A stretch of DNA of 64,000 bases. It comes from Candidatus Peribacteria bacterium. GTDB taxonomy: Bacteria > Patescibacteriota > Gracilibacteria > Peribacterales > Peribacteraceae. This document shows positions 38,468-47,217 of the stretch, piece by piece (positions within the stretch are counted from its first letter, which is position 1; the number at the start of each line of letters is the position of its first letter). The position numbers were made by a program, and so were the translations under genes. The notes under the pieces were generated by a model. It was not told the origin of the DNA. It ran no database searches and saw only the letters and a list, made by a program, of their open reading frames with translations. The stretch lies in contig JACKFU010000001.1 in assembly GCA_020632295.1 (NCBI GenBank), forward strand, positions 601,442 through 665,441, given 5' to 3'.

Positions 38468-38836
38468 ATGTTTAAAGAATTTAAAGAATTTGCCATGCGT
38501 GGCAATGTTGTAGATATGGCAGTTGGTATTATTATCGGTGCTGCATTTGGTAAAATTGTTTCTTCGTTAGTACAGGATATTATCCTGCCTATTATTGGGT
38601 CATTTGGACGATTTGACTTTACTGCACTACATCTTACGATTGGCGAATCAGTTATTGCTTATGGCAACTTCATTCAAACGGTTGTTGATTTTCTCATTGT
38701 TGCATTTTCCATTTTTATTGTCGTTCGTCAGATGAATCGCCTTAAGAAGCGTGAAGAAGCCCCAAAGAAAGCAGCGCCACCACGGCAGGAAGTTTTGCTT
38801 GAAGAAATTCGTGATCTTCTCAAAAAGAAGAAGTAG
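38468..38836 (+). CDS. mscL: Large-conductance mechanosensitive channel
   Basis: [35 protein letters not shown] canonical MscL N-terminus. Confidence 0.93.
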
Positions 38837-39164
38837 TGCCAGTTAGAATGGTGGCAGCAAGTGCTGTAGCCAGAAGTATTCCCAACCACAGTGCACTCCA
38901 GAGAAGAACAGCGATAGATCGTCGCGCGTTTTTCTCAAAGAGGAGAATAAGAGGATACCCAAGCATCGTACTTCCACAGATGAGAGCGGAGAAGACAAAG
39001 GTTGTTAAGAATAATGCCATTCCGACAAATGGGTTTGGAAATGGCTTTTCGCCCATGGTACTTACCATCGTCTGGATGACAGTCACAAAACAAAGAATGT
39101 AGGTAACAAGTGCGAGTACTTGCCCCAGCGCTATTTTCCAAGGGGGGACCGTTTGGAGTGTCAT
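38820..39164 (-). CDS. Hypothetical membrane protein
   Basis: Three or four hydrophobic helices. 4-nt overlap with the upstream gene. Confidence 0.5.
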
Positions 39165-39466
39165 ACCTGGTTAGAGTGAAAGAGTTCAGTTCCGTTTTGC
39201 GATGAAATTGATGTGGTGTCATAGCACGTAAACCATGTGCTATCGGTTGGAATCTCTGTCATGTTCTTCTCTGCATTTTTCGCAGAGTCTTTCGAATCCC
39301 ATTGAACAATATCCACATAGTCCCCGTTTTCTAATTTGTTAATTTGCCAAGACACAAACCCTGGTTGGTTTTGCATCCAAGATGTCAGTATTTCTCGTGC
39401 TGCCTCTCGTAATGTTTCCTCTGTAATGCCACTGGCCAGCTTATACTGGATAATGTCTGTGTACAT
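39161..39466 (-). CDS. Small ABM/Dabb-like protein
   Basis: About 100 aa. Pattern GFVSWQ...DIVQWDSKDSA resembles the antibiotic-biosynthesis-monooxygenase fold. Confidence 0.35.
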   Translation of the reverse strand: MYTDIIQYKLASGITEETLREAAREILTSWMQNQPGFVSWQINKLENGDYVDIVQWDSKDSAKNAEKNMTEIPTDSTWFTCYDTTSISSQNGTELFHSNQV

Positions 39467-39504: not shown

Positions 39505-39576
39505 GTACTTCGTGGAGCGGGTGGCTGAATGGTATTACAATTTTAGCAATATCTACCTAGGAGTTTGTGTCCATGA
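39505..39576. repeat. Junction repeat J1 (att-arm-like). Contains the core ggagcgggtggctgaatgKtattacaa and a relic gene 3' end.
   Basis: Aligns with 40367-40435 and 42083-42163. The relic reads LMDTNS* versus VMDKNS* of the gene at 42144. Confidence 0.8.
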
Positions 39577-39587
39577 GAGAACTCTTC

Positions 39588-40091
39588 TTACAACGGCAGT
39601 GGAACTTCAATTCTCATATCTGTTGTTTTTTCTGTTACTTGTTTTTCGCTTAAATTATTGAGCCACATTCTTTTAGGAGTGGCTTTGAAAACTCTTTTTA
39701 CAGCATTTCCCACATGGTCAATTAATTCGTACGTCCTATTGTTACTATGAAAATGTTGTAATGCTTCTGATGCCATTTGCTCATCGTCAATCTGCTCGGC
39801 GCTTGCTTGAACATAGACTCCTCGACGATGGTTGTCTCCCCTTTGTCTTTTTGAGTCAAAGATGGTTATAAATGCCCTACGGTTATTTCTAATGTTTTGT
39901 GAATGTTGAGCTTCAACCCATGAAATCCAATAAAAATTGTAGTCTTCATCATGAAATGCTGTAACTGGGCTGCCCCACGGCTCTCCATCGGCATCAGCAG
40001 TTGATATTGTTACGTACTCAAGCCCATCAATTATCTCTTTTGCTCTTGATTGCAGTTTACTAGACATCATTTGAATTATACTTAATGTCAC
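39588..40091 (-). CDS. Pyridoxamine 5'-phosphate oxidase-fold (general stress protein 26-like) protein
   Basis: YVTISTADADGEPWGSPV...FYWISW...RRAFITIF pattern. Confidence 0.65.
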   Translation of the reverse strand: MTLSIIQMMSSKLQSRAKEIIDGLEYVTISTADADGEPWGSPVTAFHDEDYNFYWISWVEAQHSQNIRNNRRAFITIFDSKRQRGDNHRRGVYVQASAEQIDDEQMASEALQHFHSNNRTYELIDHVGNAVKRVFKATPKRMWLNNLSEKQVTEKTTDMRIEVPLPL

Positions 40092-40118
40092 TCAGGTGTC
40101 AATGATGCGCTTGCAAAT

Positions 40119-40351
40119 AAAAGCCGCAGTAGTAGATCTCGTGCTGCGCACTCGATCACTACACGGCACTCAGTACTGCTTATGCCAGTTATTCGATTCT
40201 AGAGGGCTGTGCCACGAAGTCTGCGAGCGCAGCGGAATACTAAGAAAAGCCGCAGTAGTAGATCTCGTGCTGCGCACTCGATCACTACACGGCACTCAGT
40301 ACTGCTTATGCTAGTTATTCGATTCTAGAGGGCTGTGCCACGAAGTCTGCG
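40119..40351. repeat. Two direct copies of a 107-bp unit (period 126 bp, 1 mismatch)
   Basis: 40119-40225 versus 40245-40351, differing only at gccagtt/gctagtt. Confidence 0.9.
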
Positions 40352-40366
40352 TGGCGAAGCGAAGCA

Positions 40367-40435
40367 GTACTTCGTGGAGCGGGTGGCTGAATGTTATTAC
40401 AACTGTAGCAGCACCTGACTAGTAGTCTATGGGTA
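40367..40435. repeat. Junction repeat J2
   Basis: gtacttcgtggagcgggtggctgaatgttattacaactgtag... Confidence 0.8.
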
Positions 40436-40456
40436 AAGGAGATCTTGATGCAGGAA

Positions 40457-41665
40457 TCATTTTTTTTCGGTACTCCGCCTATTGCGAATCTTTTCTTGTT
40501 CCCACTCTGGCAACTGCTCAATCATTTGTAGGAATAACTGACTTTTCTCTTCTTTGCTAGCTGCATTTAGATAACGAAGAAAGTCATCTGTATCTTTACT
40601 ATCTGCTCTACAGGATGCGTAGAGTCTGAGAGCACCAGGTTCCAGCAAACGTTCGATTTCACGCAAATGTAGCATTTCACCAGAAAAGTACCCTTTCTTT
40701 ATCTTGTTCCAAACATCTTGTTTTGGAACATTTCGGGTGAGTGCAATTTTTTCAATAAGAGCGTCTAATAGTTGAATATCTTTTTCATAAGATGGAGGTA
40801 AGAGTTTTTCAGCAGACTCTGTTATATGCAGATCAGTGTCCCACTCTTCTTCATTAAATGTCTCAACGCATTCCTGTAATAGTTGTGTTGCATTTTTCAT
40901 GTCATGCAATAACTCGTTGGTCATTTTTTCTGTAACAGCCTCATTTAAACTTTCAAATAATTTCTGCTTGGGATCAGGTCTATGCAGAGAGTATCCAATG
41001 CGAGTACCTAGCCATGTTTCACACATGGTGTCGGCGAATTGTTGATTCGTATGTGATGCAACATGCAATGCTTCGTGAAGAAGAACTCTTCGTTGTATTT
41101 CCCTGTATATACGATCAATTTTTTTTGGGGTCTCTTCTATAACCATTTCATAGTAGCCATCACGATCCTTGTGCTTCTCCTCCAAGATGTGATCAACGTA
41201 CTCTGCAAAAAATTCATCTTCGCTACCTTCAGGGCAAGTGCCATGCAATTCTTCTGCTTCGTCCCATGCTTCTTCGGATAGTGCGTCGTCACTTGTATCG
41301 GGGTCTTCACTGCCGCTTGATAACCTCTCAAGTGCAGATTCTGCATTCCCTATAATTGCACTATGCAAAAAGTTGAAGTCGTCACGCTCATCTTTTACAT
41401 CGATAAGGTGTCTATCATCCAAATATGCGATGCCTACAGATTTCGGAAATTCTGCCCACTTCTTCTCATACTCGTATGTTGAAAGAAGGTGAACTTGATC
41501 CTCTTGAATGCAAGCTGGTACAGCCACACCAAGAGAAGTACATTCCTGTTGGAGGAGTGTATTTATCACTTGTAGATTTTCAGAGAGATCCCAGGATGCT
41601 TCCGCTACTTCATTCCTTGCATCGTTTGGCATCTCATCTGGTGTTTGACTTTCATTGATATTCAT
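40457..41665 (-). CDS. Hypothetical 402-aa protein with HExxH (HEALH) zincin-like signature
   Basis: RRVLLHEALHVASH followed about 40 aa later by LNEAVTE. Acidic N-terminal half. Confidence 0.55.
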   Translation of the reverse strand: MNINESQTPDEMPNDARNEVAEASWDLSENLQVINTLLQQECTSLGVAVPACIQEDQVHLLSTYEYEKKWAEFPKSVGIAYLDDRHLIDVKDERDDFNFLHSAIIGNAESALERLSSGSEDPDTSDDALSEEAWDEAEELHGTCPEGSEDEFFAEYVDHILEEKHKDRDGYYEMVIEETPKKIDRIYREIQRRVLLHEALHVASHTNQQFADTMCETWLGTRIGYSLHRPDPKQKLFESLNEAVTEKMTNELLHDMKNATQLLQECVETFNEEEWDTDLHITESAEKLLPPSYEKDIQLLDALIEKIALTRNVPKQDVWNKIKKGYFSGEMLHLREIERLLEPGALRLYASCRADSKDTDDFLRYLNAASKEEKSQLFLQMIEQLPEWEQEKIRNRRSTEKK

Positions 41666-41728
41666 CAGTATATTATATCATTTTATTTGTTATTTGTCAT
41701 GGAGCTCCTTAGTGGAGCTTATTCGGAA

Positions 41729-41959
41729 CTAGTTTAATTCTGAAGCGAGACTTGTATCTATAAGTTCGATCAGTTTGCGTCGAGTTGCATCTGGTTTGTA
41801 GATCTCTTCAGAACCAAGAAATTCATTTAACTTGCTTTCCATTTGAGGATTAAGTATCTGACTCAATCGAAACGTAATCTCTGCAACAGGACCGACATCA
41901 AATTCCCCCAGTTGAAGGAGTCTTTTTTTGAAAGCCAATAGTTGTCCTTTCTCTGGCAT
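41729..41959 (-). CDS. Hypothetical 76-aa protein
   Basis: ORF with its own TGaTATAAT box 7 nt upstream. Confidence 0.45.
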   Translation of the reverse strand: MPEKGQLLAFKKRLLQLGEFDVGPVAEITFRLSQILNPQMESKLNEFLGSEEIYKPDATRRKLIELIDTSLASELN

Positions 41960-42082
41960 TAATGATATTATATCATTATCTTATAATATTTGCAAACAGC
42001 AAATTTCCATTTGCTGACCCCTCGTTTTTTGAATCATCAGGAACTCGTGATAGGAGGTTGATTCCATGATAATTAGACTTGA

Positions 42083-42163
42083 CAACCTGCTACGCAGGTT
42101 GGAGCGGGTGGCTGAATGTTATTACAACTGTAGTGTCGTCTAACTAGGAGTTCTTGTCCATGA
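42083..42163. repeat. Junction repeat J3. Includes a 27-nt exact copy (42083-42109) of the tRNA-Gly 3' end plus flank.
   Basis: caacctgctacgcaggttggagcgggt is identical at 42083-42109 and 42644-42670. Confidence 0.9.
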
Positions 42164-42512
42164 CCTTTTGATATTTTTCTCTTAATTTCCAAACCAAATT
42201 TCTAGAAGGAGAGTCCACACCTAAATCAGACACCATACGATATAACTTATCGAGCCTGTCTGTAACTTTGCTAACTTCTAAATCTTTCTTAATCCTTTCC
42301 GTTACAGAATTCAATGCAATAACACTCATTGCTTGTTGTACTGATCCGTACATGATCGTCCATGGGCACGTTTCTATATATCCAGGACGTGCAGTGATTG
42401 GCGCTCTATTGTTAGATGCTAACTCTTCATTGATTGAGTGTAGAAAATCCTCAGCTTCTTGGACTTTGCCCCACCAATAATCCCACCATAAATCATTTGA
42501 TTCAGATTCCAT
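42144..42512 (-). CDS. Hypothetical 122-aa protein (Trp-rich N-terminus)
   Basis: ORF preceded by TTGACA, 17 nt, then an AATAAT-like box close to the ATG. Confidence 0.5.
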   Translation of the reverse strand: MESESNDLWWDYWWGKVQEAEDFLHSINEELASNNRAPITARPGYIETCPWTIMYGSVQQAMSVIALNSVTERIKKDLEVSKVTDRLDKLYRMVSDLGVDSPSRNLVWKLREKYQKVMDKNS

Positions 42513-42660
42513 AAGTTTATTATTTAACTATTTCTTTGGCTTGTCAATGGATCTCCCTACTCGAGCCTATGCGGAACTATCAAAATTCTCTTTCGTAAGC
42601 TCCAATGCAAACCTGCGCTCGCCTGCGGGCGAGCTTCGGTCTGCAACCTGCTACGCAGGT

Positions 42661-42735
42661 TGGAGCGGGTAACGGGAATCGAACCCGTATGTTCAGCTTG
42701 GAAGGCTGACGTACTAGCCATTGTACTATACCCGC
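42661..42735 (-). tRNA. tRNA-Gly (anticodon UCC)
   Basis: Hand-folded cloverleaf: acceptor GCGGGTA/TACCCGC, anticodon loop CTTCCAA, T-arm ACGGG-TTCGATT-CCCGT, encoded CCA. Confidence 0.9.
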
Positions 42736-46007: not shown

Positions 46008-46739
46008 TTACAGGTATGCAGCACTCGTATTGAGGTCTGAGTGTGGTAGTTTTTGCTCCTGGCTGGTTTTTGGGTTGTAAATTTGGTAGTAGAGCTCAAT
46101 CAGCTCCATTGTGGTTAACCTTTGTGTGCGCAGGCCAACATTATGTAAGCCGGTTTCTACCAGGTTCACACGTTCTTTAAGCTTACTTGCTTTTTCAGCA
46201 AAGTACTTGCGACGGTTGCTTACCTTGCCTGAAGAATCATCAATGCCTATCCATGAAAAGAACTGCGAAAGAGTTGTTTTCTTTTCTTCGGCATCATCAA
46301 GTGGTACAACCACAAGGAAGCGTTTTTGCATGATGTCTGCCACTTCAACGATCTTTTCCATGAAGGTGGCGTAGGCGAGTGTTTGCTCTTTGAGCAGCGT
46401 GTTTGGTTGCTTGTTTGCCATTTCATGAATTTGAGCGATATACGGATCAATATTGACTTTGGTTGAGCGGACAACAATCTGAAGAGGGAATACGAGTGTA
46501 TTTATAAATGATTCATATCCTGCGATAATGCCCTGTTGTTCTGTTTCACTCTTGAGGTTGAAATTCAATGCCTCCACCTCAAGTACAGCGCGAAGACCAC
46601 CTTTCTTGAGGATAACAGTGTCATTCCGAATTTCTGAAATGGGCACGAATCTCTGCGTTGCCGCCTTTGCGTTTTTGTTTCGCTTGCGCACGGTGTCCTT
46701 TGGATTCTTAGGCATGAGATGGGGCAGGGGAGATATCAT
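46008..46739 (-). CDS. VirB4/TrsE N-terminal-domain-like protein without ATPase domain
   Basis: FVPISEIRNDTVILKKGGLRAVLEVEALNFNLKSETEQQGIIAGYESFINTLVFPLQIVVRS resembles N-termini of Gram-positive/CPR VirB4 homologues. No Walker motifs. Probable start at 46715. Confidence 0.4.
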   Translation of the reverse strand: MISPLPHLMPKNPKDTVRKRNKNAKAATQRFVPISEIRNDTVILKKGGLRAVLEVEALNFNLKSETEQQGIIAGYESFINTLVFPLQIVVRSTKVNIDPYIAQIHEMANKQPNTLLKEQTLAYATFMEKIVEVADIMQKRFLVVVPLDDAEEKKTTLSQFFSWIGIDDSSGKVSNRRKYFAEKASKLKERVNLVETGLHNVGLRTQRLTTMELIELYYQIYNPKTSQEQKLPHSDLNTSAAYL

Positions 46740-47217
46740 CTATTGGTTTCTTGCGTTTGTTTACCTGAATACGGTCTTGCTGCACTGGTTCCGGAGGCCC
46801 TTGGTCGAGTACACGACTCAGTTCTTCAATCTGGGATTCTTGCTGCTTCTTTTCTGAGTGTGTACTCGGTTCTTTTTTTGATGGTGTGGACGTAATGATA
46901 TTGATATAGATTCCTTTATGCGGCATCCATACACGTCGAGCGGGCTTATCGATACGCTCTAGAAAGAGAAGAACCATGCGCAACAGGCTGATTCCATTGA
47001 TTTTGACGAATGCAAACAGTGCTCCGATGAGTGTTGGCGTCCATGCTATTGCTGTATGAATACCTGATGCCATGCCGTTCGATCGCATGATCGCCCACAG
47101 GGCGTAGCTGACACCAGAAGAGATCATGATGATCATAATCTGTTTTAGTGTGACCGGGCCGATAATACGGTCCTCTATATAGACGTTTTGTGGGATTTTG
47201 ACAGGGTCAATAGTCAT
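46708..47217 (-). CDS. PrgI-family (VirB3-like) membrane protein
   Basis: KIPQNVYIEDRIIGPVTLKQIMIIMISSGVSYALW matches the PrgI-family N-terminal pattern. Confidence 0.55.
   Translation of the reverse strand: MTIDPVKIPQNVYIEDRIIGPVTLKQIMIIMISSGVSYALWAIMRSNGMASGIHTAIAWTPTLIGALFAFVKINGISLLRMVLLFLERIDKPARRVWMPHKGIYINIITSTPSKKEPSTHSEKKQQESQIEELSRVLDQGPPEPVQQDRIQVNKRKKPIDDISPAPSHA

Follow-up and report, generated by a model that had tools for sequence, protein, structure and literature searches.

A cassette array at the 3' end of a tRNA-Gly gene in Peribacteria and its association with a small GIY-YIG nuclease gene

Integrons hold arrays of gene cassettes, mostly promoterless, whose attC sites are bulged hairpins with GTTRRRY/RYYYAAC boxes, and clusters of attC sites lacking an integrase (CALINs) represent such arrays without the enzyme. 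Xer-dependent modules, such as the integrative mobile elements exploiting Xer (IMEX) and the pdif modules of Acinetobacter, are small and recombinase-less, are bounded by short conserved sites and are moved in trans by a host enzyme. A mobile GIY-YIG open reading frame (ORF) in the mitochondrial atp6 gene of Allomyces is said, in work by Paquin et al. from 1994, to carry with it a copy of the 3' end of that gene. SegB, a GIY-YIG endonuclease of phages T4 and T6, cuts inside tRNA genes at RAWTSGAAC, that is, at the T-loop box, and drives amplification in tandem by way of microhomology (PMC13096335); it promotes co-conversion and the formation of tandem arrays (PMC13096335, PMC2988022). The tycheposons of Prochlorococcus are tRNA-targeting islands with serial integration (bioRxiv 10.1101/2020.12.28.424599). 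In this study, we describe a 64,000-nucleotide stretch (hereafter the window) of contig JACKFU010000001.1, from a genome of the Peribacteria (Peregrinibacteria, Candidate Phyla Radiation, CPR), in which three small gene-carrying units, E3, E2 and E1, stand one behind the other at the 3' end of a tRNA-Gly(UCC) gene. The region exemplifies an insertion hotspot that extends across the Peribacteria and shows precise junctions, serial insertion and a conserved unit grammar, and a gene for a small GIY-YIG nuclease, often found beside such arrays, may be what moves the units.

The units are named in their order along the tRNA strand, and the junctions J3, J2 and J1 end E3, E2 and E1, respectively (Table 1). 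Each unit consists of the relic of a GC-rich hairpin leader, its own promoter, one or more cargo genes on the tRNA strand, an arm of ~62 nt and the decamer ACCCGCTCCA, the whole measuring 0.5-1.7 kb. Leaders fall into types L1 to L5 and right ends into type A (the conserved ~62-nt arm), type B and type C. An earlier note on this DNA had reported a 27-nt direct repeat uniting the tRNA end with its hairpin flank, and the repeat is borne out: CAACCTGCTACGCAGGTTGGAGCGGGT is present exactly at 42083-42109 and 42644-42670 and spans the 10 terminal nucleotides of the tRNA, CCA included, and 17 nt of the downstream hairpin, because the DNA with which E2 opens is the initial 17 nt of an L1-type leader. 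Exact copies of the 33-nt core GGAGCGGGTGGCTGAATGTTATTACAACTGTAG stand at 40376-40408 and 42101-42133; the third copy claimed in the note does exist, with 3 mismatches, but it occupies 39514-39546 and the end given for it, 39540, was 6 nt short. Shuffled sequences yield an expectation of 0.00 for the 33-nt matches, and TGGAGCGGGT, the plus-strand reading of the terminal decamer of the tRNA, has four occurrences in the whole 64 kb, all of them at these sites, against an expected 0.06. The repeats of the window are real and far beyond chance. The gene 3' end common to J1 and J3 (LMDTNS-stop and VMDKNS-stop) proved to be part of a repeat family (D1) that reaches ~65 nt and takes in the ...MD(T/K)NS-stop block, which is shared because the TAG of the arm doubles as the stop codon of the ORF. 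The gene content had been read correctly (PNPOx-fold, HExxH, 76-aa and 122-aa ORFs, all on the minus strand), and the three junction repeats of the note correspond to the three type-A junctions, but two further junctions, of type C, lie at 42547/42548 and 41699/41700.

Table 1. Coordinates of the tRNA-Gly(UCC) array in the window, with example units from outside the Peribacteria in the last line
Feature	Position	Strand	Support
tRNA-Gly(UCC), CCA encoded	42661-42735	minus	ARAGORN; Rfam 72.3 bits
Last 10 nt of the tRNA, ACCCGCTCCA; insertion point and core	42661-42670	minus	core counts
E3 left end: L1-type GIY-YIG leader relic, hairpin CAACCTGC-GTA-GCAGGTTG (takes in the terminal CA of the tRNA)	42548-42660	minus	fold z = -5.6
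Type-C arm ending the E3 leader relic, AGTTCCGCATAGGCTCGAGTAGGGAGATCCA	42548-42578	minus	type-C copy listing
Promoter-like TTGACA-17-AATAAT, begins exactly at the type-C junction	42519-42547	minus	11/12 positions
E3 cargo: 122-aa ORF without family match; its stop is the TAG of the arm	42144-42512	minus	
J3: type-A arm (42110-42164) and core (42100-42109)	42100-42164	minus	nhmmer E = 1.8e-17
E2 left end: start of an L1-type leader (17 nt, a hairpin), same sequence as directly behind the tRNA	42083-42099	minus	
E2a: promoter TTGCAA-17-TATAAT (41967-41995) and 76-aa ORF (41729-41959; no family match)	41729-41996	minus	
E2 type-C arm AGTTCCGAATAAGCTCCACTAAGGAGCTCCA (41700-41730), then, at the junction, promoter ATGACA-17-TATAAT (41672-41700)	41672-41730	minus	
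E2b cargo: 402-aa HExxH protein (HEALH), without family match	40457-41665	minus	
J2: type-A arm and core (40375-40384)	40375-40432	minus	
E1 left end: L3-type GIY-YIG leader relic (CGAAGTACTGCTTCG...)	40103-40374	minus	
E1 cargo: promoter TTGACA-16-TATAAT (40075-40102) and PNPOx-fold gene (39588-40070/40091)	39588-40102	minus	
J1: type-A arm, LMDTNS-stop relic included, and core (39513-39522)	39513-39576	minus	
CGAAGTAC: first 8 nt of another L3-type leader, common to the J2 flank	39505-39512	minus	
ABM-like 101-aa and 114-aa ORFs beyond J1	38820-39466	minus	
Example units outside the Peribacteria (L152-L159)	L153:2857-3312, L154:2877-3332, L158:2904-3332, L159:720-1160		

For comparison, species representatives of the Genome Taxonomy Database (GTDB) were scanned with the neighbouring S1 protein, which gave 80 Peribacteria loci (67-82% identity), and a search of metagenomes with the degenerate arm pattern TTGTAATANNNTYCANNNRCCCGCTCCA added 58, making 138 related loci with ~1.7 Mb of flanks; labels such as L014 or L028 denote individual related loci or contigs. 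YidD adjoins tRNA-Gly(UCC) in most of the 80 Peribacteria loci, none of which holds a homologue of the cargo proteins of the window. An empty site, which the earlier note had suggested looking for in relatives, is found in L018, where MscL begins 132 nt after the tRNA, MscL being 3.8 kb away in the window. The tRNA of L028 is 100% identical to that of the window, and the DNA behind it runs straight into the sequence that follows J2 in the window; E3 and E2 together (2286 nt) are therefore an insertion exactly after ...CCCGCTCCA, at the tRNA end, in agreement with the serial insertion that the note had proposed. In about 20 species the tRNA is inverted, and it is then the stretch from its 3' end to YidD that contains the variable DNA (0-7 kb), so that the variability follows the tRNA 3' end. 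Two loci of one metagenome (L100 and L105) share 99 identical nucleotides that end at CCA and diverge afterwards. Independent public assemblies of the same organism (Logan SRR14234114 and others; GCA_020429195.1) carry the same pieces, with contigs that break at the repeats, one Logan contig stopping exactly at the CCA of the tRNA. The note had named two observations that would speak for a different origin, namely the lack of any empty site among relatives and the confinement of the core to this locus; an empty site exists, and the core and arm were found elsewhere, in 63 distinct copies.

This behaviour is reminiscent of the tycheposons, which share with the present arrays the insertion at tRNA genes, the flanking partial tRNA copies, the displacement of older insertions distally by newcomers, the accumulation of remnants and cargo-only pieces, and the variation that they bring to streamlined genomes. 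Tycheposons, however, use tyrosine (or other) integrases, contain replication modules, have att sites of ~40 nt and measure several kb or longer, whereas here there is no integrase in 138 loci, the repeat has 9-15 nt, the units span 0.06-4 kb and the recurrent gene is that of a GIY-YIG nuclease of ~80 aa.

Many contigs from metagenome-assembled genomes (MAGs) and from Logan end at or just after this tRNA (L021, L031, L085, L087, L070, L003, L155, L156, L160); the repeat array forms a systematic assembly breakpoint in Peribacteria and accounts for the frequent breaks in MAG contigs. E2 assembles at k=31 as a separate contig of 1751 bp (L007, in 5 samples), whose ends fit an integrated or a circular form, the 33-nt repeat permitting both. 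In L035 (15527-15702), two tRNA-Gly(UCC) genes stand in tandem, with a gap of 26 nt and starts 101 nt apart, and both end in ACCCGCTCCA.

Arrays of this kind are found across the lineage. Many species have, downstream of the tRNA, between one and six direct repeats of its last 9-10 nt (six in L069; three each in L020, L077 and L090), the chance expectation being ~0.01-0.03 per locus. An nhmmer profile of the arm recovered 33 copies in the genome loci, and all loci together comprise 57 arrays and 98 intervals. The consensus of the 63 distinct copies, tcA.gGACAcAaACTCCTAG.aggac.cAtca.aGTTGTAATAa..TCCAGtaACCCGCTCCA, shows conserved blocks that alternate with variable positions; conservation begins ~62 nt to the left and halts exactly after CCA. 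Wherever the contig extends far enough, a co-oriented tRNA-Gly ending in CCCGCTCCA lies upstream of the arm, mostly with the anticodon UCC, and with CCC or GCC in L102, L116 and L135. The tRNA-Gly(GCC) of the window itself ends in ATCCGCTCCA, one mismatch away from the core, and has no array. Among the intervals, 24 are gene-less units of 55-198 nt and 74 have 0.33-4.4 kb (median ~0.9 kb); an ORF that could be scored (60 aa or more) was present in 72 of the longer intervals, of which 53 have their longest ORF in the direction of the tRNA and 19 against it. In 12 of the 63 arm copies, an ORF on the tRNA strand with 90 codons or more terminates at the TAG of the arm. Pfam matches for the 206 ORFs of the variable regions describe cargo of the usual accessory kind, with AHSA1/SRPBCC (seven), GNAT (five), DUF1428 (three), NUDIX, ABC and SLH.

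Several identities for the arm were examined. It folds no better than shuffled sequences (z = +1.07 and -1.6), Rfam returned tRNAs only, with nothing in the array at E ≤ 10, and no attC-like GTTRRRY/RYYYAAC box pair was seen by eye in the arm consensus, so that neither a known RNA family or structured RNA nor an attC-like hairpin accounts for it. Beyond the last 9-15 nt, which are clearly tRNA, the arm has no tRNA match at E ≤ 10; the stretch GTTGTAATA..TCCAGTA resembles a T-arm by eye, but local and anchored alignments to the tRNA body score only ~1-1.4 standard deviations above shuffles. The start of a gene on the opposite strand was rejected, given that the reverse strand reads AGGAG-N9-ATG but opens ORFs that are mostly shorter than 60 codons. 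A transposon of the insertion-sequence or miniature inverted-repeat (MITE) type does not fit, since the two ends of a unit do not form an inverted repeat, the length of the direct repeat ranges from 9 to 21 nt, and no transposase-like family is among the 25 most frequent Pfam families of the 206 variable-region ORFs. A viral or satellite origin was rejected as well, the core and arm pattern having no occurrence in IMG/VR. The units resemble the cassettes of integrons and CALINs in being small, with one or two genes that are mostly co-oriented, in their recombination-site-like end with a crossover at its distal edge, in the use of one fixed chromosomal site and in the classes of cargo; they differ in that there is no IntI or attI, the arm lacks the attC hairpin and boxes, the cassettes have promoters of their own and the anchor is a tRNA 3' end. 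With the Xer-dependent modules they share the small, recombinase-less format and the short conserved bounding sites, but no dif-like 11-6-11 palindrome is evident in the arm (no formal test was made), the repeats are direct rather than alternating inverted, and the target is the end of a tRNA.

An all-versus-all comparison of the cassette ORFs revealed one widespread family, of 79-91 aa, which is a stand-alone GIY-YIG domain (PF01541, E = 3e-18) with the conserved motifs visible in the alignment. Its gene is present in 32 of the 139 sequences searched (the 138 loci and the window) and is apparently intact in 23 distinct related units. It lies on the tRNA strand wherever the sequence includes the tRNA-Gly, and it was the first gene, ~60-460 nt after the core, in all the cases inspected; of the 21 distinct GIY-YIG genes that could be evaluated, 16 have cargo behind them and then, on the same strand, a type-A arm. 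The full unit is therefore ordered as core, leader, GIY-YIG gene, cargo, arm and core. The gene-less units retain the leader and the 3' end of the GIY-YIG gene, as deletion derivatives of GIY-YIG units would.

The leaders that precede the GIY-YIG gene are GC-rich and of a few types only. In the consensus fold of L1 and L2, GCUCCAACC of the tRNA pairs with GGUUGGCAGGC ~90 nt downstream, and compensatory changes are seen in 6 of the 31 pairs (alignment A3: L014, L114, L094, L138, L099, L075); such a leader could be a terminator or processing signal, a switch for the expression of the nuclease, or a DNA cruciform. The first 51 nt of the E3 leader are 96% identical to the leader before the GIY-YIG gene of L014 and the likeness is interrupted thereafter; the E3 leader is also near-identical to that of L161, where an intact GIY-YIG gene comes after the same tRNA end. 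The left end of E1 matches the DNA behind the tRNA of L028 (73% identity over 293 nt) and, twice, the leader of L104 (93% over 61 nt); leaders of this L3 type precede GIY-YIG genes in L028, L104, L101 and L113. A piece of the E1 leader is tandemly duplicated (family D2, unit of 126 bp at 40116-40351, two copies, 98% identical), and the leader is truncated at a perfect TTGACA-16-TATAAT promoter. Judged from these alignments of sequence, the window keeps two GIY-YIG leader relics, in E3 and E1, and has lost the gene itself. In L161 (149-1525), where the L1 leader and the GIY-YIG gene are intact, the genes behind them are those of a ParE toxin, its partner and a Zincin_1 protein, a typical cassette-type cargo.

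The link between this gene and tRNA 3' ends extends further. The GIY-YIG protein has 153 relatives at E ≤ 1e-8, and six distant homologues were looked up, in other Patescibacteria, Margulisbacteria and unclassified bacteria; each of them follows the 3' end of a tRNA in the same orientation at a distance of 23-70 nt, the tRNAs being those for Tyr, Pro, Glu, Pro, Lys and Lys. Direct repeats of the tRNA end, of 14-21 nt and starting in the T-loop, flank four of these six units, and the two that were read in detail (L153 and L154) have hairpins at both unit ends. Phage homologues amount to only seven weak matches. Units of this type outside the Peribacteria make the association look like a general element class, and we found no literature description of the Peribacteria array or of small chromosomal GIY-YIG elements linked to tRNA 3' ends. 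There is a close likeness to the free-standing GIY-YIG homing endonucleases of the T-even phages, and SegB in particular, since there too the nuclease gene adjoins tRNA genes and is present or absent between relatives (PMC13096335, PMC2988022). Seg proteins, however, have at least 200 aa, with DNA-binding domains, and act in phage co-infection, whereas here a bare domain of 79-91 aa is encoded in bacterial chromosomes; in addition, the present units have a duplicated tRNA 3' end as boundary and a long structured leader, and they carry cargo. The atp6 ORF of Allomyces is reportedly similar in its insertion near the 3' end of a conserved gene, for which it supplies a replacement end while the resident end is left downstream as a repeat; it differs in belonging to a eukaryotic organelle, in its protein-coding target and in having neither cargo nor arrays.

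No integrase could be detected. Three single-sequence queries (Escherichia coli XerD, Cre and the gamma-delta resolvase) were compared by phmmer with all six-frame ORFs, a search in which the XerD-Cre match was recovered as a control; at thresholds of E ≤ 1 to 10, the metagenome set being searched at E ≤ 10, neither the window nor any of the 138 related loci yielded an ORF like XerD, Cre or a resolvase. The Pfam labels of the 10 kb on either side of the array of the window likewise include no integrase, and no recurrent integrase family (at least two members) is among the 25 most frequent Pfam families of the 206 variable-region ORFs. The statement of the earlier note that the array lacks an integrase thus extends to all the loci analysed, and the tyrosine or serine recombinase that it had suggested seeking beside the core was not found by these queries in any of the 138. 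Recurrent cargo (SLH proteins, TauE, NYN and Asn-synthase) was inspected for hidden recombinases and is ordinary cargo. The description of the units as remnants of integrative elements stands as regards serial insertion at the tRNA end, but nothing indicates a classical integrase-type element, the units being promoter-bearing modules of 0.5-1.7 kb whose left ends are relics of GIY-YIG leaders.

These relics, together with the promoter-bearing modules, make a homing-endonuclease-like agent more likely than a tyrosine or serine recombinase. Our judgement is evenly divided as to whether the units of the window are non-autonomous relics of GIY-YIG elements that target tRNA 3' ends, spread by endonuclease-initiated gene conversion (homing), have lost their nuclease gene by decay and depend on help in trans. 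If they are, E3, E2 and E1 would have been inserted successively at the last base of the tRNA-Gly(UCC), with older cargo lying beyond them. The full form would begin with a leader in which a GC-rich hairpin base-pairs with the GCUCCA end of the tRNA, and its GIY-YIG enzyme would act as a free-standing homing endonuclease, breaking element-free tRNA genes near the T-loop or the 3' end. Repair would then copy the element, its cargo and a replacement tRNA end from the donor, displacing the old tRNA end downstream as the direct repeat, and repeated rounds would stack the units. In the usual homing cycle the nuclease gene would decay, leaving leader-plus-arm relics and cargo-only units, and for movement those of the window would rely entirely on a trans-acting nuclease or on recombination at the sequences that are shared, namely tRNA, arm and core; the earlier suggestion of decayed or trans-mobilised elements fits the data. 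The features of homing that are seen are the conserved target, the presence or absence among relatives and the decayed copies; those of an integrating element are the direct repeat of the tRNA 3' part that bounds the insert and the regenerated tRNA. A broader proposition, on which we lean slightly to the side of doubt, is that small stand-alone GIY-YIG nucleases define an undescribed, cross-phylum class of mobile elements with structured hairpin ends, which insert at tRNA 3' ends and duplicate the terminal 10-21 nt of the tRNA; in Peribacteria they would have given rise to integron-like but integrase-free cargo arrays at tRNA-Gly, with the arm as a right-end signal for recognition or homology, and the window would represent their decayed, trans-dependent state.

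A number of points weigh against homing by the GIY-YIG protein. Its gene is absent from the 64-kb window and from 77% of the related loci, and it could be mere common cargo that favours the first position. The protein is a bare catalytic domain of ~80 aa without a DNA-binding domain, which leaves site specificity unexplained, and that it cuts the tRNA gene and drives insertion, as well as what the arm does, is what we infer from gene order and sequence. Furthermore, homing alone does not explain the 62-nt arm at the right end or the sharp right boundary, which resemble a site-specific recombination site, and the three queries of our recombinase search are blind to novel folds, to DDE or HUH enzymes and to genes elsewhere in the genome. 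The main rival, which we consider unlikely, addresses precisely these features: in an integron-like or satellite system, an unlinked site-specific recombinase (a host Xer-type enzyme or a novel one) would recombine arm and core with the tRNA-Gly 3' end, inserting and excising promoter-bearing cassettes of which the GIY-YIG gene is a frequent one. It would explain the conservation of the arm and the sharp boundary better, there being a conserved 62-nt element at the 3' end of the units, an abrupt crossover boundary and an invariant 9-nt core; intervals of 0.3-4.4 kb (median ~0.9 kb) with mostly co-oriented genes are as in integron arrays, the cargo is cassette-like (GNAT, SRPBCC/AHSA1, DUF1428, NUDIX, a ParE toxin-antitoxin pair), and the lack of a recombinase in cis is also typical of CALIN-type arrays. 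No tyrosine or serine recombinase, however, was found in ~1.7 Mb around 138 arrays or loci, the presumed site forms no hairpin or attC-like structure (z = +1.07) and shows no evident inverted sites for core binding, conservation is lacking to the right of the core, and right ends of types B and C finish in the same GCTCCA without any arm. The association of GIY-YIG genes, tRNA 3' ends and direct repeats across phyla would also be left without explanation.

It is improbable, in our opinion, that no dedicated enzyme is involved and that DNA from relatives enters by RecA-dependent homologous or homology-facilitated recombination, with tRNA, arms and leaders as portable homology and the repeats as scars. 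Efficient RecA recombination needs homology longer than the 10 nt available here, and this route explains neither the copy of the last 10 nt of the tRNA at every unit end, nor the junctions placed exactly after CCA, nor the position-specific conservation inside the arm. It agrees, on the other hand, with the leaders, arms and tRNA common to species without shared cargo, with the mosaic make-up of the units of the window (the L1 leader broken after 51 nt, the L3 leader tandemly duplicated and truncated at a promoter), with the type IV secretion or pilus-like genes nearby and with the report that RecA and Ruv are encoded in Peribacteria (PMC4736985). We regard as very improbable that the repeats are functional RNA or regulatory elements (tRNA-mimicking mRNA 3' ends, terminators or operators) rather than traces of mobility. 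The finish of every unit in ...GCUCCA, as in a mature tRNA, the hairpin followed by UCCA in the type-C arms and the compensatory changes in 6 of 31 pairs of the leader fold are what such a role would lead one to expect, but the type-A arm is unstructured and has no Rfam match even at E ≤ 10, and the presence/absence polymorphism and the unrelated cargo between species denote events of insertion and deletion, to which a regulatory role could be added without replacing mobility.

The type-C right end reads AGTTCC.(C/A)ATA(A/G)GCTCC-loop-GGAGCTCCA, a hairpin then UCCA, like the acceptor minihelix of a tRNA; besides the two copies of the window, each with a promoter directly after it, copies were noted at L090:14753, L137:899 and L138:464 and 1154, and the type-C arm of E2 is also present in L051, L090, L137 and L138. 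The -35 boxes of the cargo promoters begin exactly at the unit junctions 42547, 41700 and 40102 on the minus strand (CCA-TTGACA, CCA-TGACA and TCA-TTGACA, with the hyphen at the junction), and TTGAC likewise opens 14 of 198 distinct junctions in related loci. Concerning the cargo, no defence-system or NCBIfam names were found for that of the window; the PNPOx-fold gene of E1 matches PF01243 (9e-13), and a set of 1.8 billion representative proteins contains 326 relatives, all unnamed, of the 402-aa HExxH protein. Beyond J1, the ABM-like and 114-aa genes are lineage-specific, being absent in other species except for the 114-aa gene in the variable region of L056, and are probably older cargo; the conserved flank (MscL) begins at 38836. 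At 3-8 kb from the array lie genes for TraC-like, PrgI-like and type IV secretion system (T4SS) pilin proteins (46008-47217 and ~50.3-50.7 kb; Pfam labels of the identical Logan contig), a possible apparatus for DNA exchange. The segment 32863-36291 encodes a cysteine-rich secreted protein of 1142 aa with Dicty_CTDC repeats, which has relatives in several of the loci and matches the 'C-rich proteins' reported for Peribacter (PMC4736985).

The CPR, or Patescibacteria, have tiny genomes and few recognised mobile elements. In the Peribacteria, the last base of tRNA-Gly is a defined and widely conserved entry point for such genes, and the grammar of leader, cargo, arm and core offers an easy way of tracing, in metagenomes, the accessory genes available to a whole class. 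All together, our results describe a conserved cassette system in a class of the CPR and a candidate new class of GIY-YIG elements that target tRNA ends. Should the small GIY-YIG protein indeed drive insertion, a minimal nuclease of ~80 aa would target the ends of tRNA genes in several phyla, and the units would be homing elements of a new kind, equipped with cargo, that might serve as a tool for inserting DNA at a specific site.

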